23,077 nucleotides of DNA, taken from Vermamoeba vermiformis. Its lineage: Eukaryota. The first letter of the stretch is position 1. Each line of letters begins with the position of its first letter. Location of the stretch: NCBI GenBank assembly GCA_045837725.1, contig JBEWZL010000178.1:186001-209077 (forward strand), given 5' to 3'. The position numbers were made by a program, and so were the translations under genes. This document shows, one piece after another, positions 1 to 19,600 of the stretch. The notes under the pieces were generated by a model. That model was not told the origin of the DNA and did not search any database. It worked only from the letters and a program-made list of their open reading frames with translations.

Positions 1-1781
1 AACTAGTTCAACTACCAATTCAAGAACACCCGTGGTTCTTTGGCAACGCATCCAGAGAAGAGATTAAAAGCGCTCTTAATAGTAAGTCTTTTTGCAACAC
101 AAATATATTTTATAGGAATTTCTAATTAGCGTTGAACAGTTTCATCAACAAACAAATGTTTTCTGGTTATTTTTACCGGATCGCGTTTGTTTCGTTGCCA
201 AACTTATCGAAGAACGTTAATTCATAATGAAAACAGCATTAACGGACTAAATCAGTTCGGAGTGTCGAACAAAGGCGTTGTTAAAGACTTTGAACTTTAT
301 CAATTTTATTGCAGCCTCGTGGCGCAAGATCTTCAAAGCATGAAACAGCTTCAAACTACTCATAGTAAGTAAATTACTTATATACCATATTAAATATTTA
401 ACTTTTTGCCTTAATATATATCCGAGATACTTTAATAAAAAGTCGTTCTGATCCGGTTGATATTTTTTTCAGAATTCAATTGGGCCACTATAGCCAGACG
501 TGAACATCCGAAACCTTCATATGTTTCAAAACTAATTGGCCATCAACCGCATCCATTAGTTGAGTACTTGAACGTTGTTGATGACATTCGTCAAGACATC
601 GTTGAATGGCTCTTTCAACTTTGTCCGCTCAAAGGGTAAGTACAATTAAATACTATACTAACTTAATCGTATCGTTTTATCTAAATCATATGAATTTATT
701 TTACTTCGGTACAAAATTTTTGTTAGATCCGATAGTGCCGAAGTCAATTTTTTGGTTATATAAACGTGTGCTTTTTAAAATAATTTATTCGTACTCTATA
801 TATATTAAATATTCTTTTAACACTTAATTTCACAGAATCAGCTTTGACTGGCAGAGGAACGAAATTTCCGATCAGCAGTTGAGAATTATCCAAAGAATTA
901 TTGAAGATGGCGGCTATATTTCAGCAAACTTGTTGATTCAATATGTTACTAAAGTGGTGCCAACAAAAAGAAGCGAGTTGACCATGTTGGCAAGTGCATG
1001 GGACGATGTCGACCGTAACAAAGTGTGGCCGTTCGTGCTTGAAAAGTACCAAGATTTATACAAACAACGACGAGTAACTTCAGAGACAAATATGGCAATA
1101 TTATTGGCTTGGAAATATGCGGACGGCGAGTCAGTCGGATTTCGAAGTCTGCCGAAAGAGTTGATCCGATTGATCGTTGATTTTATTGACGAACCTCCGC
1201 TGACTGTTCGAATCTTTGCAGAAATTCTTGCTGTTCGGTGCGCGAAATTCAGCATTCATTTCAAACTTAATTGGAAAACTTGGCTAGAAAAAAATCTTTG
1301 GGGAATTGAATTCTTTGCTAAAACACGTGACGGTGGCTTTACCCATGGAATTATTGGATCTGTCGCTAGAGCAGCTATAAATATGAAATACCACGTATTT
1401 AGGCGTTACAAGAATACTATCTTGGATCTGGCAGTACGATCGAATTCATACAGCCAAAAATTCCTGGAATTTATCATCAAGTACGAGACACAAGTTCCAA
1501 ATTTAGAAAAAATGTGGTCAGTCGTATTAACGAACGATTACATGATGTTTTCTAGCGCGGCCATTTTGCGCAAGCGGAAAGAGAAAATTGTTTCGACTGC
1601 AGCATTCAGAGCAAAAAATGTAACTTCCTTGAAATTTCTTCTCTCAAAAGCAGCGCTATGGATACCAACAAAAGAACAATTTGACCAATTTATCAAACCA
1701 AAGCATAATGTAACGTACCAAGAAGCTATGAACCTAATCGAAGAGATCAAGAACTCCAAAACGATTGATTCGCGAAAATAA
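1..1781 (+). CDS. Uncharacterised protein, paralog A (5'-truncated by window); degenerate SH2-like segment and internal F-box-like motif
   Basis: Exons <1..81, 140..364, 473..635, 836..1781 joined by GT-AG introns in consistent phase. Translation includes QLPIQEHPWFFGNASREEIKSALN and LLAWKYADGESVGFRSLPKELIRLIVDFIDEPP. Colinear with paralog B, with introns at equivalent positions and phases. AATAAA at about 1809. Confidence 0.8.
550..632 (+). repeat. Near-identical coding block 1, copy in paralog A (partner 3553..3635)
   Basis: 5 mismatches in 83 nt by manual alignment; encodes HPLVEYLNxVDDIRQDxVEWLFQLCPL. Confidence 0.9.
1079..1204 (+). repeat. Near-identical coding block 2, copy in paralog A (partner 4092..4217)
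   Basis: 6 mismatches in 126 nt by manual alignment; encodes SETNMAILLAWK..LPKELIRLIVDFIDEPPLT. Confidence 0.9.
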
Positions 1782-2067
1782 ATGTCATTAATTGCCATTA
1801 ATCTACAAAATAAATGCTATCGCTCGATTTCTTTCAACACGAAAAAATTTACTTAGCCTGTAGTCACGTGATCGTTAGTCTTTATCAGTATCATTATTGG
1901 TTCTTGCGCTCTACCTTCGTTGATTATTAGCGTCTCCAGTTCATTGTACCGCATTTAAAAAATATTGAAGAAGTAAATGGTGAACTATTTGAACGTACTG
2001 AGGGCCGTAAAAAGTCTTCAACCAGAATTTTCTTATCTTTTCTGTTATACATAACCATACGACGGCA

Positions 2068-4764
2068 ATGGACGAACAAAACTTGAAATCTGTTATATCG
2101 ATAGTCGTATCACGATTGAAGCGCTCAGAAGATAGCCTCGAAGTATTCAAAGCAGTATTGAATTTATCAATCGCTTCAAAATCATTTAAAAATTATTTGA
2201 ACGATAAATTATTGGTAGAACTAAGCTATAGATACGTTAAAGGTGAGTTTTGTAATTTTCGAATATTCTTCAATATTAATTAACCGAAAATTATTCTTCA
2301 GATCGAACGCAATTCGTTAAAAACAGATTGAAGTACTATATTCGTAGTAATAATTTTGATAAATTTGCCATACGTAAGTAATTAATAGTATCTAAAATAA
2401 TTGTATTAACGCGATAGTCTTTAGTGGCAGATCTCGTTGTCGCGCATTATTCAAAGCTTGAAGGCGTTCAAACACTTAATAACTTGCTCGAATATGTTAC
2501 AAAACACGCAACATGTGAATTTTTGAAGTCATATTTGGCGTATTTTTTGGATCGTGGCTTACACGTTGGATGCATCCAAAATTTTTTCAAGCTAAATCAA
2601 GAAGGAAATAATATTTACCCCGATTTTAGACCAACAAAATTCATTGACGCAATGAATATAACTCATACAAATAGATGGACTGACAAATTACGGTCTTTGG
2701 CCGAACGATTTGTGCGGTACCTGGATCTAAAGGAAGATACCGTACAAGAATTTTTGGATGTAATAAGCAATAGCCATATATATTATAAGAGGCTTGAATT
2801 TTCGGGAATTCGCCGTATTTTAATGTGGCACTACAAAAATAGACCCTACTACACTGACGAACGAGAACTTCTTTCGATACCCCAAGATCCTGGTACAAAA
2901 ATTCATGCAATATATTTTCTTAGAATTAATGCAATAAATTTTATTATTAGTGTATTGCTATAAACCTCAAGGCACTACTACAGTCACAAAAGAATTGCTG
3001 CAATTACCGTTTGAAAAACAGCCGTGGTTCTTTGGCAACTTGACGCAGCTCGAAATTAAGCAAATATTTGAAAGTAAGGTGCTCTTTTGTATAAATTAAA
3101 AATTAAAATACGTATTTTAATTTTTAATTTAATTAGGATTTAAAAACAACAAAGATGTTTTTATTACGACATTTTTTGGCGCGCAGCTGCTCTGCATGCA
3201 AAGGGTGAACAAAAAATGGCCTATATATGGAAAGCGAAAAAAAGGATTCCCCACATTTGCGATATTAAATAATTCTGGCATTGCGAAAGATTGGGATCTG
3301 CATCAATTTTATCTTCGCTTGATTGAAAATGATCTCGAAGGCATGAAAAAATTACAAAGTATTCATGGTAGGTATATGTATTTGATATTACGAACAAATT
3401 TCAAATCTTTAGCTCGAAGATCAGATCCGGATCTGAAAATCAAGTTGGATCTGACAGTTAATATTACATTGATAGGTTTTGACTGGAGTACTCTATCGTT
3501 GCGTCAAACTGAGCACTGTGAAAACAATACGTCTATCGCTGGCACTCAACCTCATCCGTTAGTTGAGTACTTGAACGCTGTTGATGATATTCGTCAAGAC
3601 GTCGTTGAATGGCTCTTTCAACTCTGTCCGCTCAATAAGTAAGTACTAATATGCCCTATATTATCACAATTGACCTAAATTATCAATATTATGCTTAATA
3701 CGCAATATTTTTGATTTGCATTAGGCAACGGATTTGTACCGAAAAATTCACTGAGTTTATGTTTCGATCAACGAGATGTGCAAAAATATCCTTATATGGT
3801 ATATCGTTTACTCTTAATAATTATTGTTTTGTACAGTATTTGCGTTAGATGGGACAAAAATGATTTTCCAGCACACCACCGGACAATTTTTCAACGAATT
3901 GTCAAGCACGGAGGAAGCTTTGATGCAGAAAATTGGTTAAAATATGTGAAAGCTATAATGCCTAAACATATCGTGGATTCACATTTGAAACACTGCACGA
4001 ATTTCGAGTATGATGTTAAGTACAAAAATCTGGTTGACTGGGAAAAGATATTTGACGAGTACCGTAGTCATATGAAACAGCAACGAATAATTTCAGAGAC
4101 AAATATGGCAATTTTATTGGCTTGGAAACATGCGGACGGAGAGTCGATCGGATTTCGAAATCTGCCGAAAGAGTTGATCCGATTGATCGTTGATTTTATT
4201 GACGAACCTCCGCTGACCCGAGTCTTTGCAAAAATTTTGGTCGGTAGATTTAAATATCTTGAATTATTTACTGTAGGGAATTATCGAATCCGAGACTGGA
4301 TCAAAAAATATAGTTGGGCCATTGAATTTTTAGCGAAAGACAAAGGTTTTCGTCCCTCATTATACGAAATTGATGTAGAGAGTAGTATGGACTATTCTAA
4401 ATTTATGAAAATGAAACATTGGCTCTTGGAGATCGCGATCCGAAACAAAAAAATCAAAGGTCAATTTCGGTCCTTATTTTTCAAACACGAGGAAGATATT
4501 CCAAATTTGGAAAAATATTGGGCATTCGTTAAGCAAAAGCACGTGGATAAAAATCTCGATGAATCGGAAATTCAGCAGAAATACGCATCCATCTCATTAT
4601 TGGTGTTGCAAGCCAAAAATAGAACGTTTTTAAATTTTCTGATGAACAAATCGGCGTTTAGAATGCCAAAAAAGGAAGAATTTACCGACGATAGCTCCTA
4701 CGAAGCTGCGCTGATCTTCATCGCAGATGTTGAGAAAGAACGAAACCAAAACTTGAAAAAATAA
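2068..4764 (+). CDS. Uncharacterised protein, paralog B; N-terminal F-box-like helix, degenerate SH2-like segment, internal F-box-like motif
   Basis: Exons 2068..2242, 2302..2373, 2425..2892, 2951..3073, 3137..3367, 3476..3638, 3837..4764, all GT-AG and in frame. Motifs VLNLSIASKSFKNYLND, LPFEKQPWFFGNLTQLEIKQIF, LPKELIRLIVDFID. Clear homology to paralog A. Confidence 0.82.
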
Positions 4765-6838: not shown

Positions 6839-7192
6839 CGGGAACATAAGATAATCCGCAGCGCATAAAATGGATATTAAGTGTCTACCAGTGAACACAT
6901 TTTTTTCGAGGAGATCATAATAATTGTTGTAATTATTTTTGAGTGATACTCGGGCAATACCTTGCAAAGCATGAAAACGCAACGACCATGAACAAATGAA
7001 AACACTGATGATCTACAATGAGAGCTTGAATTCGGACAAATCGGTTTAACTGAGCAGGTATATTTTTATCAATTGATCAATTGACGCGCCTAAAATCACA
7101 CTGGAAAATTGCAAAACGAGTTTAGTAAACATCCGTGTGTAAATTTAGGAACATGAGTGATTGTGAGGTAACTTTAGGATATTTGTGAGAGA

Positions 7193-7210
7193 TTCTCGAA
7201 TATTCTAGAA
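7193..7210. promoter_or_regulatory. Heat-shock element (four alternating nGAAn units)
   Basis: TTCtcGAAtaTTCtaGAA ending about 92 nt upstream of the LRR gene ATG at 7303. Confidence 0.55.
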
Positions 7211-7302
7211 TATACTTCCTGGCAATACAAATTAGCTCCAAGATCTCTTTCGTACTGAACAACCGAGAAGTATCTACCGGTCATTTATTTACTATTTGTA
7301 AA

Positions 7303-8213
7303 ATGATCGTCTTACTTATATTGCTGTGCGTAGTATCGGCACCGGTAGTTTCTTCAAACCAACATAAACGATTTGATCAACAGCGTGAAATCTTGGTTGA
7401 ATTATTCAAGTCCACTAATGGAACCGGTTGGAGAAATAGTAATGGATGGCCGGATGCTTCAAACGTATGTCAATGGTATGGCGTTACTTGCAATTCTAGT
7501 AGCCAGGTAATTACCTTGTGCACCTCTATATCGTTTTTCTTAGCATTGTATTTTAGGTCATTTTGCTAAAACTTGGCAACAATCAGTTATCGGGAACGAT
7601 TCCATCTTCATTAGGACAGCTAGGTGGTATTCGATGGTTGGATCTTGGTGGCAATCAATTATCGGGAACGATTCCGTCTTCAATAGGACAAATACGTAGT
7701 CTTCAATGGTTGGATTTTAACACCAACTGGTTATCAGGAACAATTCCTTCTTCGATAGAACAGCTCAACAAACTTCAATCGTTGGATTTTGACAACAATC
7801 GATTATCGGGAACAATTCCATCTTCATTAGGAAAGCTACTTGATCTTCAACGGTTGCATCTTGACAACAATAGATTATCGGGAACAATTCCATCATCAAT
7901 AGACCAGCTCAACAAACTTCAACGGTTGGATCTTGGCAACAATCGATTATCGGGAACGATTCCGTCGTCCATTGGGCAACTCAAGAATCTTCAATGGCTA
8001 TACTTGAACAACAATCAGTTATCGGGAGAGCTTCCGTCACTGGCACAACTCGAGAATCTTCAGCGGTTGTATTGCAACAATAATCAACTCCAATACATTA
8101 GTCCGAAGATGAATTTTCCGGCAAGCATACGTAATTGCAATTTGTCGTTAAATGACTTCCAATGCCCCATTCCAAATTGGGCAACTACGAGTTGTTTTGC
8201 AACTTGCCATTAA
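7303..8213 (+). CDS. Secreted leucine-rich-repeat protein (plant-type LRRs with Cys-containing N-cap; PGIP/RLP-ectodomain-like), about 286 aa
   Basis: Signal-peptide-like MIVLLILLCVVSAPVVS; N-cap LVELFKSTNGTGWRNSNGW...CQWYGVTC; intron 7507..7556; about 8 LxxLxLxxNxLSGTIPSS repeats; Cys-rich C-cap CNLSLNDFQCPIPNWATTSCFATCH; no transmembrane segment. Confidence 0.92.
7581..8085 (+). repeat. 72-nt tandem coding repeat (LRR units)
   Basis: The core TTATC(G/A)GGAAC(G/A)ATTCC recurs at 72-nt spacing (units starting 7581, 7653, 7725, 7797, 7869, 7941; the 8013 unit is more diverged). Confidence 0.9.
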
Positions 8214-8384: not shown

Positions 8385-9944
8385 TTACAACCATCCATGA
8401 GTCTGAGCCATGCGCTGGAACGCGTCTTTGGCCTCAGCCTCAGTATAATCTCGTTTGTTCATGAAATCCAATCGCGCGCCACCCTCGCACAACTGCGCTC
8501 TAATCGTCACTATTACAGACTCCATAGTAATAGCTACGACATGTTATTAGTATGATATGATAGACACCGTGGGCTACTTCAAAACTTACCAGGGCTCCAT
8601 CCTTTGTTCGTTAATAGCTCCGTGCAAATGGATCCGCCAATCGTCACATGACCAGTTCTATATACAAATCGAGGTCTAATCACTCGAATAAACGGCGGTG
8701 CAAAGGGAAATGACGAGGGGAACGTGATGTGCAACGTAATATGTTCCTAGTAACACTAGTATTGGTATCATGGAAAAGTAATATTTGCAGATCTGCTGAG
8801 CAGATCTAGATCCAGCAGACCATTCGAGCACGATACTTACAATATTCATTTTTTTCATGTCCTTGGATAAAGGCTCGGACTTATCAAAGTCGAAAAACCG
8901 CAGTTCCCAGTGATAAATATTGTCGTCAACTGGCTCGACTGAATAACCCTTCAAACGATCATTAATAAAGGTCCAACCTCCATATATATATCGTATGTAT
9001 ATAGTACCTGTTTCTCGGGCTCTCCTTTCAATAAGTGCGTTAACTCCGCGTACAATCGTTCGGTCGCCTTTCCAGTGCTGTTCTTTGGCACCAATCCGCC
9101 GCCGTGAGAAGTCTTTGGTTTCTTCGGCATAAACTCCTATGCGATTGTTAGTCTCGTCTATATTAATAATAAGCTATATTTAGACTAGCCTTAGTGTCTC
9201 TAACTGATAATTCTTTGCCGCAACCATTGACCGGACACGCAATTTTGATGTCCGTAGCTACTTTGTCTTCAATATAATTACGAATACAAGGCTTGCAGAA
9301 CCTTAAGTATAGTATAATATATTAGGGCTTGTCGGCCTCATATTAAATATGACTTACTTATGCGAACACTCGTCTAAGATATAAATAGAATCAACGCTAA
9401 AGGTCTTGTTGCACTTTTGACACAAAATTTGTCCCGGTGACGACGAGGAAATTTGATTTTCTTCTTCAGCAGCGAGCATTCGTGCATATTCTTCATCTGT
9501 CATTTCATCAGCTGATCGTTTTTTGCCTATTATACTGTTCGATTTTTCTTCTGTTTTAACCTACCGTAACCGAAGAAGTCAGCCGTATTTTCGCCAAGGT
9601 CTTTGTACTATGAACAATTTAGAATTAAATGCAAAAATAATTTTTAAATAAATGTAAATTATAATAAACAGCAAAGGTATGGCGTAAACTCGAACAAGAA
9701 TTATTACTGAATTTTATTCGAAGAATAATATTTGTTATTATTGAACGAGTGCCTAATCCAGTATGTATTCGAGCAAATATTATTAAAAAATAATATTTAC
9801 CTCATTTGAACCTGAACCTTCAGATTCGTCGTCAAAAAGTGCTGCATCCAAATGTCCATCGCCGTCCAAGCATTTATTAACGTGTGCTTCTAATTTGGAC
9901 TCTAAAAACGTGCGACTACACACTGGACAAACAGCTGCGCTCAT
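8385..9944 (-). CDS. UBE2Q-family ubiquitin-conjugating enzyme fused to N-terminal UBZ zinc finger, MIU-like motif and RING finger
   Basis: Exons 9944..9801, 9607..9565, 9526..9358, 9301..9190, 9136..9008, 8948..8841, 8746..8590, 8533..8385. UBZ-like CPVCSRTFLESKLEAHVNKCLD; DEEYARMLAAEEE; RING CQKC..ECSHKFCKPC..CPVNGC; UBC FPSSFPFAPPFIRVIRPRF..GHVTIGGSICTELLTNKGWSP ending AFQRMAQTHGWL. Confidence 0.88.
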
Positions 9945-10067: not shown

Positions 10068-12779
10068 CTAACAGTTCTTGCCAAGATTAATTTGGTTGAC
10101 AAATTCAAGATGTGGAGTGTCAGATTCGGTGCCATTGAAGTGGTGAAGCTCCAAGAGAATGATCTCATTGCGACCCTTCTTCAATAAAGGCCAAGGCACG
10201 TAATTAGTGACTTGCGGACCAGCGTTCCAATAACGACCCAAGTTGAATCCGTTCACCCAGATCACGCCCTTGACCCACTTGCTCATATCCAAGAACGTAT
10301 CAGCGACAGTATCAATATCGAGGTAGCCGCGCCAGAAGGTAGGCTCGTTAGTGCGGTCATTGTTGTCGTAACGTGGGCCAAATTTCTCGTTGATACTCGA
10401 GATCGGAGTTATGTCCGCGAGCGGCAATGAATACTGAGTGTAGTGGAATTGCCATTGACCATCAAGCTCGAAGGGCTAAATATAAAACATATGATTAGGA
10501 TGCTATTGATGACCTATCATATTAAAAAAACTTACCAAAAGTAGGCCTTTACGCTCAGTTTCCATCGCGCTACCAAAATTAATACGACCAGTGTTTTCAA
10601 CTAAGAAAGAAAGTTGTTGACCCTAATATACCATATACATTAGCTACATCATCATTGCACGAGCGATAATTAACTTACAGGTTTCTTGATCTGCAGTGGC
10701 ACGTTGTTGCTCTTGGCATTACCACGCCAAACAGCGCCTTGATAATCACCGTCCAAAAAGACCTGAGCACGATCTTTCATGTTGGTGAAATAAAGAGACA
10801 AGTTCAAAGGCTGTTGACCAATAGCAGCCAACGTGGTCTGGTAGTAGATGAAGCCGTAGTACTGATTGAAATCTTCCATTTGCTGCCAAAGATGCGTTAG
10901 ATAAGAATAGACGTAGCATGTGCACGAGAAAACTTACAATAGGGAACGTGCTCTCAAGAGGAGGAGGGCTAAGGACGCTCAAAGTGGTCGGATCCAACAA
11001 CTTGGCAACCTTGGAAACGCTAACACGACCGTAGGCCTTCTTAGGAGTAGGAGCAGGCAATTCAGGCTATAAAGTGTGCATAAAATTAGAGGTTGTGCTT
11101 CAAAAATTTGTGTTTAATACTTACCAAAGGATCGGTGTTGATCTGAGTGAAGATCTCCTTGAATAAATAGAACTTGAAGTTCAAATCACCAGCCTCGTTG
11201 ATAGGTGCGTCTGTGCATCGCATGTTAATAAAAGAACAATAAACGGTCACGTAACGTACCATAATCATAGCTCGTAACTTGCGGCGCGTAGTTGCCGTAG
11301 GTTCCATCTCCATTAGCGCCGGACATAAAACCAAAGCTAGTACCACCGTGGTACATGTACAAGTTAACAGAAGCGTTCCAAGAAAGCGTGTTAAGAAGAG
11401 TGATGGATGCCGAGATCGGATCACCAATATTGTGGCAACTGCCAGTCCAAGAGTCAAACCAACCAACCCTAGGGTAAAAAATAAACGATTTAGCAAGTTA
11501 ACAACGAGACACGACGCAACAACAGGGCAAAAGAGCAAAAAAAATCGCTCCCACCTGGGTTCGAACCAGGGACCTTTCGGTTAACAGCCGAACGCTCTGC
11601 CGACTGAGCTATGGAAGCTTGTTGATTTTTGCGAAGCGACCTTTTTTGAGACTAGTCAGGTCTAGACAACTTACCAGTACTCGGTGTTGAACAGAGGACC
11701 AGTTGTTTGATAACGACGCAATGTCTTGAAGGTACCGTCAACGTCCGTACCAATACCGTAGTTGGCGGTCTTGACAACTTCTTTGACTGCACCTCCTTGC
11801 AATTGTAGGTCGCTAATGCCGTTGGAAGAGAACAACACAGTCTCGATGCCATTGCTGCGCACGGTGTCGATGATGCCTTGCATGTACTTGTGGTCAGATC
11901 CGTAGCTGCCGTACTCGTTCTCAATTTGAACCAAGACGATAGGACCTCCCAAGTGGTATTGCAAGGGTTGAAGACGAGGCAACAAGGCGTTCAAGAATCG
12001 CTTAGTATAGAACATATACTGTTGATTGTCACAGCGCAAATGGACTTTGGGATCAGAAAGCAACCATCCAGGGAAGCCTCCAAACTCCCACTCTACGTAC
12101 GATTAGCACAAATATATTAAACTCGAGCTATTACTAGTCTACGTACCAGCACAAATATAAGGAGGAGGACGAATGATGACTAACAAGCCAACCTTCTGCG
12201 CGTATTGCACGAACTTGACAATGTCTAATCTGCCAGTGAAATCATAGCTATCAGCGTTCTTAGGTTGATGAAGATTCCACGAGACGTAAGTCTACGTTTG
12301 TTAATTCAAAATTAGTAAGGTGGATTTAGTCCCGTGTCTCTTCGGACACTTACCTCGACGGTATTCAATCCACCAGCCTTCATTTTAATTAATCGGTCCA
12401 TCCATAATTCAGGGAGAGATCTGAAATAATGAAACGCGCCTATATATTTAAAATAATTAATTTTGAATTTCAAAAAGATTTTTATTTTACCTGACAAAAT
12501 TCTAAATGGCTTGCCATCCTTAGCCCATGAATTGCCCATCACCACGAAGGTTCTATTATTTACGGCAGGATTATTTTTGCCATAGACATAGTCGTAAGTC
12601 GGAGGAGCAAAATCTGCCAAAAACATTTAATTTATTAATATTTATCCACATAATTTGGGCACATAAAAATAAATATTAATTTAAAGACGTCATCGCATAC
12701 CTTTGACTTTTAAACATCGCGCGACCGCAAAACTAGCCAGTAACACCGCTAGAAAACACAACAAATATGAGAGCCGCAT
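10068..12779 (-). CDS. Glycoside hydrolase family 35 beta-galactosidase, secreted or lysosomal
   Basis: Signal peptide MRLSYLLCFLAVLLASFAVA; GH35 motifs ILSGAFHYFR, MKAGGLNTVE, GGPIVLVQIENEYGSY, TEYWVGWFDSW, NLYMYHGGTSFG, TSYDYDAPINEAG, KGVIWVNGFNLGRYW; about 10 GT-AG introns. Confidence 0.95.
11537..11544 (-). terminator. RNA polymerase III terminator (T8) of tRNA-Asn
   Basis: Run of 8 T on the minus strand beginning 2 nt after the tRNA discriminator base. Confidence 0.8.
11546..11618 (-). tRNA. tRNA-Asn: tRNA-Asn (anticodon GTT), intronless, nested in beta-galactosidase intron 11469..11674
   Basis: Minus strand GCTTCCATAGCTCAGTCGGCAGAGCGTTCGGCTGTTAACCGAAAGGTCCCTGGTTCGAACCCAGGTGGGAGCG folds as a cloverleaf: acceptor GCTTCCA/TGGGAGC, anticodon arm TTCGG-CTGTTAA-CCGAA, T-loop TTCGAAC; no encoded CCA. 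Confidence 0.96.
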
Positions 12780-16681: not shown

Positions 16682-19600
16682 CTATTCTGACTTGTCGCTC
16701 GTTGAGGTTTCATTCGTGTTAGGATCGGGAACTTCAGAGCTCGTAGCAGCTTGTTCCGCTTGACCTTCATGCACGCTATCGTTGGTACTAGGTGCCTCTT
16801 GTTGTTGGTTCGTATTTGTAGTATTTACAGCGGCCGTAGCATCTTCTTTAGGAGTCTGATCTTGATCTTGATCTGTGTTCGCTGGTGTCACTTGTCTCGA
16901 GCTATTATCTTCTTCATTTGTTGTCTCATTATTAGTACTAGGTGCTGGCTCGCCATTATTATCACCTTCAGCTTTAGCATTATTATTCTCTTCGTCCTTC
17001 AGTGGTTGAGATCCAGCGGTGTCGCTCGAGCCATTGCCGTTATTTTCTTGTAATTTCTTTTCTTCCAATAACAACTTCGTCAAGTTCTGTGGTGTAGGGC
17101 CGTAGAAGTCGATCAATTTGTTCGTCAGTTCCTCTGTAGCGATGAGTCTACGAGGACTGTCAAACAGTGAAACTACTGCTCGCGCAACAAACGGGATGAA
17201 CTCTTCGCAAGTGACCTATCGAGTCTCGTTAATAAAAGATGGAAATATGAGTGCTAAGTGCCTACTCTACACAGCTCGGCGTAGCCTTTCTTGTCTTCAG
17301 GCTTAGCAGCGTTGATGACATTAACAGTCAGATCCACAACGTGGTTAAGTGCATTGAACAGAGCAGTGCTGATTGGTGTCTGCAAAGATTGAGGACAGCA
17401 TTTGCGCAGTTCATTGAACGCTTGTAGAATGCTATTGAGTAACAGCGCTAACGGAACGTAGTCGATGAGGACACGAGGCGGCTGAAGCTTTGACGGATCC
17501 TCTGCACAAGTTAAATTAGGACCAATATCAGCTGCAAATACTAGATAGATCACAATAGACGTACCTTTTGTCGGAGTGACTGTTGGCGAAGGTGCAGAAA
17601 AAGATGAGTTCAGGGAGGCAGGTCCGCTGGATCTGACCACTTGTTAGAGCACGTGATACCTTTTGAAGGCAGTACTTACGGTGTGTTTTGTGGCGGCGTA
17701 AACTTCTTGATGGTCATTGTAAACTGATCGACTCCAGTATGCAAAGTATTCAAAAACATGTCTAAAATACATTTCTCAAAGATGGGCACGAGCAGGGCTA
17801 AAATTTTTTTTGTTAATCATGTAATAGTGCAAATAATATATTGGTACCTCTAAAGTCAGCGCCAGCCTTGGATAAAGATGAGCCCAAGTACATGCATTGG
17901 TTCATAATGTTCAAGATCGAGGAGCCGTCGGAAATTTGTGGCAAGTATCTGTGTGGAGTAAAGTTATAAACTGTCATATCAGTGGAGTATATAAATGCAT
18001 ATATATACACTTACTTCTTCAATATTTGAATAAAATCGCTGATTTTATGAACGAGCCAGCTGTACAAAATTCCTTCGTCCTAAAAAGGAAAACACGTGCA
18101 TTGTGAGCACTAAGATGACAATATATTAATCCCTAGTATTATATCTTACCTCTTCAGTGGTACTACTCGAGTCCTCTTCACTATTTGTATCGAAGATAGT
18201 CTTATATTGCGTAATAATATCGAAATATTGAGCGCGGCAGGTATCGATCAACTTGCTCAACTAAGATCCAAAATTAATGATTTATTCATATAATTAGAGT
18301 ATTAATGATATATATAACGTTATTTAATATAGTTTTAAGCTACTTACGTAATTGTAAGCGTTGTTGGTCGGGATCAAGGACAAAGCATTTTGCATGCTAA
18401 TGTCGCGGCATTGCAAGAAGCATACTCTAATCTCTCTATTATCATAGACTTGTAGTCTACTTAAATAGCCAATAGCACGAGAACATTGCGCTAATTGCGT
18501 CGTTGTGCTCAATTGTTGATGGAGTTGCGCGATCATCATTTCTGTGGCTTTTTCAACATCGTCATACTAATATTAATATATAAGTACGTGTATAAAGTAC
18601 TAATATGGTATATATTTCTATAAATGATAACGACTAGCTTACAATAAGTTTCAGCACTTTGACTTCCGGATGTGATTTGTACATTCGCGCGGCAAATTGT
18701 TTCAATTCAAGTGCTTCTTCATAATATTGACTCTATATATTTGTGTTATTAAAACGCACGAGGAATAAAATAACTACACAATTAAGTGCTATTCCGTACC
18801 TTAATACAGGTGTCGATCATTTGAGGCAGTTCCAACAATTCTAATAGTGTCGAGTGCTGTTTCAATGTCGTGTTGGCTGCTTTTCGTTTCGTTGAGATCT
18901 TGTTCGCTTGCGAGATAAAGTCCTAATAATACAAGCAAGTAAGCACAAAGATTCCGAGTACATCCGGACGGCGTTACAAAGCAGATCCACGCTTAGTGTA
19001 CATCTCATGATAGTCTATTTGATGGTTATGTATTGTATACGGGTACTTACTTGGCATGAGGCGTTTAAATCGGTTAAGTGATGCGTTGTTTTGTCGATCC
19101 CGCCTGAAACACCTGACAACTGAAAAAAAATACGTTAGACGATCTTCTACCAAATTTAAATAATATAGAATAGATAGTATGGGTGAGTTGGATTAGATAT
19201 GACGGATAATATGAAAAAAGATGTTGATGGCTTGGAGGAAAAATTTACCTGGTTTCTGATCTCGCGAGTGCATTCAGAGGTTTGAATAAAAGTCTTATAA
19301 TTCTTGAATGCTAAATCGTGCATTTCGCGTTGAATATGTTCGCGCTCAATAGCAAGTCGAGTAGGTTCTTCCGCGACTTTGTCTAAACTGAATTGACTCA
19401 GATCTGCTAGATATCTCGTTGTTTCTGCTACATAATTTGTGTCTCGTAGCTTTTGTTCATCTGGAAGGAGAAAGCGGAGCAAACTGAAAGAAACTACGTC
19501 AGATCCGAAAATACAGAAATAAAATATCGCTTGAAAAAAATCCAAAAATAGTATTGCACCATACAATAAATATAAATATGGGCGTTAGACGTAAATATTG

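Follow-up and report, generated by a model that had tools for sequence, protein, structure and literature searches.

Within a 23,077-nt stretch of the Vermamoeba vermiformis genome (contig JBEWZL010000178.1, positions 186,001 to 209,077; hereafter the window), the minus strand carries an expressed seven-exon gene whose single 333-residue product joins a putative ubiquitin-reading N-terminal region, a RING domain and a ubiquitin-conjugating (UBC) core of the UBE2Q type. Its coding span is 8385..9944, exactly from the ATG (9944) to the stop codon (8387-8385). The four parts that the original prediction had named from the sequence, a UBZ finger, a motif interacting with ubiquitin (MIU), a RING and a UBC domain with its catalytic cysteine, were all found over this span. 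RNA reads join the RING to the UBC part, the same order of domains recurs in relatives, and the window's gene belongs to a wide family, as yet uncharacterised, in which a ubiquitin-conjugating enzyme (E2) and a domain normally associated with ubiquitin ligases (E3s) share one chain.

Gene model and transcript support

The junction between the RING and UBC parts falls at intron 3 (9137..9189, 53 nt), the only GC-AG intron of the gene, which separates the second RING exon from the first UBC exon. Its joint (9135/9189, with three letters of slack) was spanned by four, four and two RNA reads in runs X21, X22 and X23, respectively, all of them RNA runs filed under the same species label. As this joint bridges the two parts, both domains lie in one mRNA; neither a stop nor a start codon was found between the two parts. 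The prediction of a single chain, for which a transcript across the exons had been proposed as the check, is thereby borne out, and separate RING and UBC genes are contradicted. The five residues kept only by the GC donor of intron 3 are conserved in relatives. A GT donor at 9204, which is in frame and would give a 328-residue protein, was discarded, the GC donor at 9189 being favoured both by the relatives and by the RNA joints. The joints of introns 2, 4, 5 and 6 were seen in the contigs of X5, a set whose RNA nature is a guessed label but which is visibly spliced. Five of the six introns are supported by spliced RNA or contigs, intron 1 being the exception.

Read from the start codon, with all features on the minus strand, exon 1 (9801..9944) encodes residues 1-48 and includes a C2HC finger (residues 6-25, at 9929-9870). 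It had no RNA cover, nor had intron 1 (9561..9800, 240 nt, GT-AG), whose boundaries are predicted. Exon 2 (9358..9560) encodes the MIU-like motif (residues 66-82, at 9509-9459), and within it the RING begins at residue 95 (9422), its first half lying in this exon. The RING is interrupted by intron 2 (9302..9357, 56 nt, GT-AG), whose joint was seen in an X5 contig and in two X23 reads (9299/9356, cut +2), and its second half, to residue 143 (9220), is encoded by exon 3 (9190..9301) together with the start of a conserved post-RING linker motif. The remainder of the linker and helix 1 of the UBC domain are assigned to exon 4 (9008..9136), and the UBC beta sheet to exon 5 (8841..8948), both from the gene model and the alignment of relatives; between the two lies intron 4 (8949..9007, 59 nt, GT-AG; X5 joint 8947/9007, cut +1). 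Intron 5 (8747..8840, 94 nt, GT-AG; X5 joint 8745/8840, cut +1) precedes the UBC active-site exon, exon 6 (8590..8746), in which the codon of the catalytic Cys273 occupies 8626-8624. Intron 6 (8534..8589, 56 nt, GT-AG; X5 joint 8533/8590) falls within a Trp-Ser-Pro-Ala loop, and exon 7 (8385..8533) encodes the C-terminal helices of the UBC domain, a terminal His-Gly-Trp and the stop codon (8387-8385). Intron 1 excepted, the introns measure 53-94 nt, and five of the six are GT-AG.

If the donor at 9800 is used, no phase-0 acceptor other than that at 9562-9561 precedes the frame that opens at 9560. Intron 1 is predicted from this frame logic together with the N-terminal finger of the relatives; use of a weaker alternative donor/acceptor pair may alter about ten linker residues and no domain. 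A 43-nt mini-exon (9607-9565) followed by a 38-nt intron, likewise in frame, was excluded by record 4 of the X5 contigs, which covers 9547-9356 unbroken, including 9527-9547, and terminates exactly at 9190. Between the window and the reads and contigs we counted 14 differences, 12 of them synonymous. Joints between opposite strands were seen in X21 alone, at 9101/9189 (six reads) and 9237/9248 (four reads), and are probably library artefacts.

The UBE2Q-type core, the RING and the N-terminal region

The UBC core extends from about residue 170 to the C-terminus, with the catalytic cysteine at residue 273. Exon 6 alone scored 25.5 bits against Pfam UQ_con (E 1.1e-5, cut-off 27). Comparisons between UBE2Q and other E2s were made with relatives at about 50% identity, which stand in for the window's protein. 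One of these, P0026, reached 43.7 bits for UQ_con, a family matched by all 71 members (71/71), and its E-values were 2e-30 to human UBE2Q2 and 8e-29 to UBE2Q1, the next match standing at 7e-14; these values bear out the UBE2Q-type assignment made in the original prediction. A second relative, P0055, is N-terminally truncated and comprises the RING, linker and UBC only. In VIA its model gave Z 24.6 with UBE2Q2 and 22.9 with UBE2Q1 (root-mean-square deviation (rmsd) 1.4-1.6 Å over 150-156 residues), against at most 16.1 for other E2s. By sequence and by predicted fold, the catalytic core is of the UBE2Q type.

Animal UBE2Q1 and UBE2Q2 carry an N-terminal RWD-like region. No such region was found in the fusion by Pfam or by alignment, the N-terminal 165 residues being made up of the finger, the MIU-like motif and the RING; the sole RWD matches fell inside the UBC core (P0026 residues 227-256). 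The cores themselves are alike: as in human UBE2Q1 and UBE2Q2 (PDB 2QGX, 1ZUO), the His-Pro-Asn (HPN) triad is absent and the active-site loop reads Gly-Gly-x-x-Cys. The exon 6 translation has Thr-Gly-His in place of the triad; of 150 representatives scanned, 70 matched the active-site pattern, and every one of these has a His at that place. Alignment with UBE2Q1 shows the His409 position to be conserved and Tyr343 to be replaced by His. At its C-terminus the family conserves a His-Gly-Trp to at least 90%, spaced more tightly than His409...Trp414 of UBE2Q1. According to the available part of PMC10971424, human UBE2Q1 depends on Tyr343, His409 and Trp414 for discharge to Ser/Thr and other hydroxyls, and this enzyme, which lacks the HPN triad, modifies peptides E3-free in vitro with a preference for Ser/Thr and hydroxyl acceptors. 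The same part of that paper links UBE2Q1 to Cul2 adaptors, with no validated UBE2Q1-specific E3, and gives neither a specific E3 nor an in vivo substrate as established for the human UBE2Q enzymes.

The RING (residues 95-143) has eight ligands in cross-brace spacing, C-x2-C-x14-C-x-H-x2-C-x2-C-x16-C-x4-C. It is split by an intron, and exon 3 alone scored 16.3 bits against Pfam zf-C3HC4 (E 0.0092, cut-off 21), a family for which P0026 reached 23.8 bits (cut-off 21) and which 34/71 members matched at E up to 0.01. All eight ligand columns were in register in 24 of the 89 aligned rows, and in a further 18 with the seventh ligand displaced. The residue between ligands 1 and 2 was hydrophobic (L, I, F or V) in 65/89 rows, one-zinc forms included, and the linker motif that follows the RING was strongly conserved (Asp in 74, Leu in 68 and Arg in 57 of the 89 rows). 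One-zinc forms belong to a sister subfamily, with a UBA domain instead of the finger, in which the second RING zinc site alone is retained (24/89 rows); Pfam labelled this form zf-Nse in 16/71 members. Relatives P0053, P0034, P0008 and P0014 are among the members of this subfamily.

When the RING of P0026 was searched against the PDB, the top-ranked match was a tandem RNF4 construct, over merely 24 residues, twice. The second to seventh matches were RING1 domains of the RING-between-RING (RBR) ligases HOIL-1, RNF144A and HOIP, and the longest matches, including the Cys-Pro-x3-Cys end and the trailing helix, were RBR RING1 domains (E 0.005/0.007 for HOIL-1, 0.01/0.058 for RNF144A, 0.043 for HOIP and 0.33-0.43 for ARIH1). 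The likeness to an RBR RING1 that had been proposed from the window agrees with these matches, at E-values that are marginal (0.005-0.043 for HOIL-1, RNF144A and HOIP), and they suggest that the RING is most like the RING1 of RBR ligases. The fusion has at most the RING1-like finger in common with these ligases; it has neither IBR nor RING2, and its UBC domain starts about 25 residues past the RING and runs to the C-terminus, so that the protein is not an RBR ligase. No IBR families were present among the 25 Pfam families shown of the 31 found in the 71 members.

The finger of exon 1, C-x2-C-x11-H-x3-C (residues 6-25), has the spacing of a Rad18-type UBZ4. Exon 1 alone scored 25.4 bits against Pfam zf-C2HC_2 (E 1.1e-5, cut-off 27), and in the PDB the finger met RAD18 UBZ chains (E 0.22-0.23), Pol kappa (0.45) and WRNIP1 (1.1), matches that are suggestive and non-significant. 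In the model of P0026 it forms strands at 4-6 and 13-15 and a helix at 19-27 (pLDDT 87-95). An MIU consists of one helix, in which Leu and acidic residues flank a central Ala, and an MIU-like acidic helix motif with a central Ala occupies residues 66-82 of the window's protein. The matching region of P0026 is helical in its model (74-89), several relatives have two MIU-like helices, and Pfam CCDC50_N, a region which we take to hold MIUs, matches 2/71 members; a PDB search with the MIU exon gave no significant match. In 21/71 family members, those of the sister subfamily, a UBA domain stands at the N-terminal place of the finger. Two unrelated ubiquitin binders at one position argue that ubiquitin binding has been selected, and this swap, together with the Rad18 UBZ spacing, points to a reader function of the N-terminal region.

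Distribution of the family and surroundings of the gene

The spliced protein aligned end to end with relatives P0019 (48.9% identity over 331 columns, E 1e-129) and P0024 (50.6% over 336 columns), and for this reason the architecture is more than chance. With the 52-residue active-site exon as query, 167 longer proteins were found at E up to 0.001 among 169 candidates. Domains were counted with hidden Markov models (HMMs) made from the family alignment; the one for the RING region drew on all 71 rows and took in the linker as well as the one-zinc forms. Counted in this way, a family RING-region module (which is not to be read as an intact RING) accompanied the UBC domain in 72 of the 120 listed exon-6 matches, and the finger was present too in 11/120. 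A profile search retrieved 4444 proteins under an E limit of 0.001 and, counted as 50%-identity representatives, 1016 under a limit of 1e-30. UBE2Q-type cores with other N-termini made up most of this yield, and among the best 150 representatives the RING-region module with UBC was found in 20 and the finger as well in five. The N-terminal 165 residues as query, within a length band of 181-578 aa, retrieved 23 proteins, of which 20 had PF00179 and the remaining three were short. A protein atlas search with P0026 gave no usable match.

Most members are metatranscriptome contigs of about 1 kb, and complete transcriptome open reading frames (ORFs) from several species have the same domain order. 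The closest named relatives of the window's protein are amoebozoan, and transcriptomes of Amoebozoa supplied full-length relatives with roughly 50% identity; named amoebozoan sources were Soliformovum, Gocevia, Mastigella, Nematostelium, Flabellula and Balamuthia. The fusion module was also named from Mantamonas and Trimastix, and a more distant RING and UBC form was found in a haptophyte cluster with a Chrysochromulina protein. Database labels on members read 'ubiquitin-protein ligase', 'E2 Q' and 'UBC core domain-containing protein'. UBE2Q-type cores as such were found in Amoebozoa, Mantamonas, Trimastix, a heterolobosean and a haptophyte protein cluster. The available part of PMC11354881 calls UBE2Q domains recent and essentially metazoan, a view with which this protist spread, as judged from sequence matches, sits badly. 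One relative, P0119 (933 aa), combines a UBE2Q-like UBC core with a PARP catalytic domain and a RanBP zinc finger (PF00644, PF00179, PF00641).

The original prediction had left room for the architecture being both common and characterised. It proved common, as the 72 of 120 listed matches indicate, whereas a description of it was not found: literature searches for a natural RING-UBE2Q fusion returned only engineered fusions and general surveys, and a brief earlier mention is possible. The combination is not mentioned in the available parts of PMC11354881, PMC3670738 and PMC4327156, and the supplementary heat maps of the last may list it.

Several better-known enzymes share parts of the design. 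In UBE2O, BIRC6 and UBE2K a UBC domain is joined to substrate- or ubiquitin-binding parts and a separate E3 is not strictly needed; the UBA of UBE2K is C-terminal, and the core families of all three differ from the UBE2Q type. To our knowledge none of the three has a RING, and the same holds for the other known E2/E3 hybrids. RAD18 is a RING and UBZ4 protein tied to one E2, and binds Rad6 non-covalently. It shares the Cys-Pro-Val-Cys ... His-x3-Cys finger spacing and was among the best PDB matches (E 0.22, non-significant), whereas the fusion carries its E2 in the same chain. RNF168, with a RING and two MIUs, follows the same reader-writer logic; in the available part of PMC2699339 its MIUs recruit the enzyme to ubiquitin-marked targets by binding ubiquitin, the central Ala being required. 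Unlike the fusion, RNF168 is an E3 only, with separate E2s, and its MIUs come after the RING; the likeness seen here is at the motif level. The fusion works most like a merger of such a reader-writer E3 (RNF168, RAD18) with a UBE2Q E2.

The genes on either side appear unrelated to the fusion gene. A plant-type leucine-rich repeat (LRR) gene with an N-terminal hydrophobic stretch (7189-8213, plus strand; LRR_1 E 4.5e-32) is convergent with it, about 170 nt from its stop. On the minus strand, 10068-10475 and upstream, lies the last exon of a beta-galactosidase gene, with a galactose-binding domain (E 2.4e-24); only about 125 nt separate its end, at 10068, from the fusion ATG downstream, a compact spacing. 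Elsewhere in the window we found an exon with a Dor1/COG8-like N-terminal domain (19156-19584, minus strand, E 4.6e-11) and four long open frames of 169-349 aa (828-4764, plus strand), in which there were no Pfam matches at E up to 0.001.

Proposed mechanism and its alternatives

We think it somewhat probable that the protein is a self-contained, ubiquitin-guided E2 in which the RING1-like module contributes to catalysis or positioning. The ubiquitin-activating enzyme (E1) would charge Cys273 with ubiquitin, as the intact UBC core leads one to expect, and the C2HC finger and MIU-like helix would anchor the enzyme on ubiquitin or ubiquitin-marked proteins, a role to which their motifs and the UBA of the sister subfamily point. 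Ubiquitin would then be passed straight from Cys273 to a nearby acceptor without a separate E3, and such direct transfer may amplify, extend or branch an existing ubiquitin mark. According to the AlphaFold2 prediction, the RING1-like domain and the conserved linker helix belong firmly to the catalytic unit and pack on the UBC domain in a non-canonical manner; the RING might activate the thioester, position the donor or acceptor ubiquitin, or recruit a partner. The reader-RING-E2 chain is conserved across several deep eukaryote lineages, which argues for a joint function of its parts. The acceptor may be a Ser/Thr hydroxyl and not lysine, given the homology with UBE2Q1, the missing HPN triad and the conserved His and Trp. 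Since human UBE2Q1 acts E3-free in vitro and prefers Ser/Thr and hydroxyls (PMC10971424, available part), lysine chain extension is not the default expectation. Of the self-contained, chain-extending enzyme first proposed, the architecture and the single transcript stand; a RING acting as a canonical E3 on its own E2 is not supported by our results, and chain extension on lysine is not what one would expect first.

The predicted structures bear on this reading from both sides. The full-length AlphaFold2 model of P0026 (pLDDT 85.4, pTM 0.55) has a well-folded finger, two helices, RING, linker helix and UBC with disordered stretches between them; with two disordered linkers, its domain arrangement is unusable. 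The model of P0055 (pLDDT 91.1) has a pTM of 0.85, which is the model's own confidence and which suggests a defined mutual position of the 60-residue RING and the 160-residue UBC. The modelling that had been proposed as a check on an intramolecular RING-UBC contact thus predicts a compact unit, and one of non-canonical geometry. The natural comparison is with engineered RING-UbcH5 fusions (4R8P, 7JZV, 8UQ8-8UQC, 8V0D), which have the same single-chain RING-linker-E2 order; residues 95-295 of P0026 match 4r8p_L by sequence across both domains. These constructs, however, are artificial; their E2 is a canonical one, with the RING held against its canonical face, and the model of the natural family cannot be superposed on them: against engineered RING-UbcH5c fusion chains, Foldseek gave P0055 a TM score of 0.43-0.45 and an rmsd of 13-15 Å over about 250 columns. 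A complex prediction between the RING part and the UBC part of P0026 scored 0.00; it was run without alignment or controls and is evidence neither way.

A number of these and other results weigh against a self-contained enzyme with an active RING. In the models the RING-UBC packing is non-canonical and the canonical E2-binding pose is absent; for 4r8p_L, Foldseek returned a TM score of 0.43 and an rmsd of 13.5 Å over 248 columns, and VIA superposed just 123 of its residues, about the size of the UBC part. That the RING is a canonical E3 for its own E2 is supported by none of our results, the predicted geometry being what bears on it. Besides the self-assessed nature of the pTM, the structural and full-length Pfam results describe relatives at about 50% identity and not the window's spliced protein. 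In many activating RINGs the last zinc ligand is followed by a conserved Arg or Lys; here that position is variable (K in 19, G in 16 and R in 3 of 89 rows), and the window's own protein has a Lys, not a hydrophobic residue, between ligands 1 and 2. The terminal Trp may be the counterpart of UBE2Q1 Trp414, from which it differs in spacing. The finger and MIU assignments are likewise at motif level, the finger lying under its Pfam cut-off with PDB E-values of 0.2-1.1.

Some of these points would also fit an ordinary E2 that needs separate E3s, in the way put forward for human UBE2Q1 and cullin-2 complexes, with a RING-like module that is no E3 element and serves just for docking and as a cap, be it structural or autoinhibitory. 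We regard this as unlikely, though it deserves to be taken seriously. The non-canonical packing of RING and UBC in the models would be in keeping with it, and so would the unconserved linchpin position, the loss of the first zinc site in 24/89 rows with the fusion retained, and the association of UBE2Q1 with Cul2 adaptors in the absence of a validated specific E3 (available part of PMC10971424). Against it stand the retention of the RING-region module with the UBC domain across distant lineages, the hydrophobic residue between ligands 1 and 2 in 65/89 rows, one-zinc forms included, and E3-free peptide modification by human UBE2Q1 in vitro, described in the same part of PMC10971424.

That the gene model wrongly joins a neighbouring small RING gene and an E2 gene is scarcely credible. 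Exon 1 and intron 1 had no RNA cover, and single exons stayed under the Pfam cut-offs, as such an artefact would lead one to expect; but the RING-UBC exon junction is spanned by RNA reads in three runs, four further joints were seen in contigs, no stop or start lies between the parts, and the arrangement recurs in complete ORFs from the transcriptomes of several species. A relay akin to that of RBR ligases, in which the RING1-like domain recruits a second charged E2 and ubiquitin passes to Cys273, with the UBC domain in the role of IBR-RING2, strikes us as quite improbable. The longest PDB matches of the RING with its trailing helix are RBR RING1 domains, the fused core retains its catalytic Cys, and the family resembles RING1 domains in having no conserved linchpin. 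The RING1 E-values are nevertheless marginal, the UBC domain has a normal E2 fold with helix 1, so that direct charging by E1 is simpler, and we know of no E2-to-E2 relay of such a kind.

Beyond the self-contained enzyme that we favour, a broader and rather doubtful extension is that the UBE2Q fusion is a Rosetta stone for the missing partner of UBE2Q enzymes: UBE2Q cores would pair with an RBR-RING1-like module and readers, and in these protists the complete unit would write Ser/Thr ester-linked ubiquitin onto chains or ubiquitinated proteins, either directly or by Cys-to-Cys relay from a second E2. If true, this reading predicts that animal UBE2Q1 and UBE2Q2 pair with RING1-type E3s, for which HOIL-1, which makes ester-linked ubiquitin, is a candidate. 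E2s and RING E3s are taught as separate proteins, and the RING-E2 fusions among the PDB matches are man-made. The natural family would offer a compact single-protein system for studying the effect of a RING1-like domain on an E2, the way in which readers steer a writer, and the true targets of UBE2Q-class enzymes.

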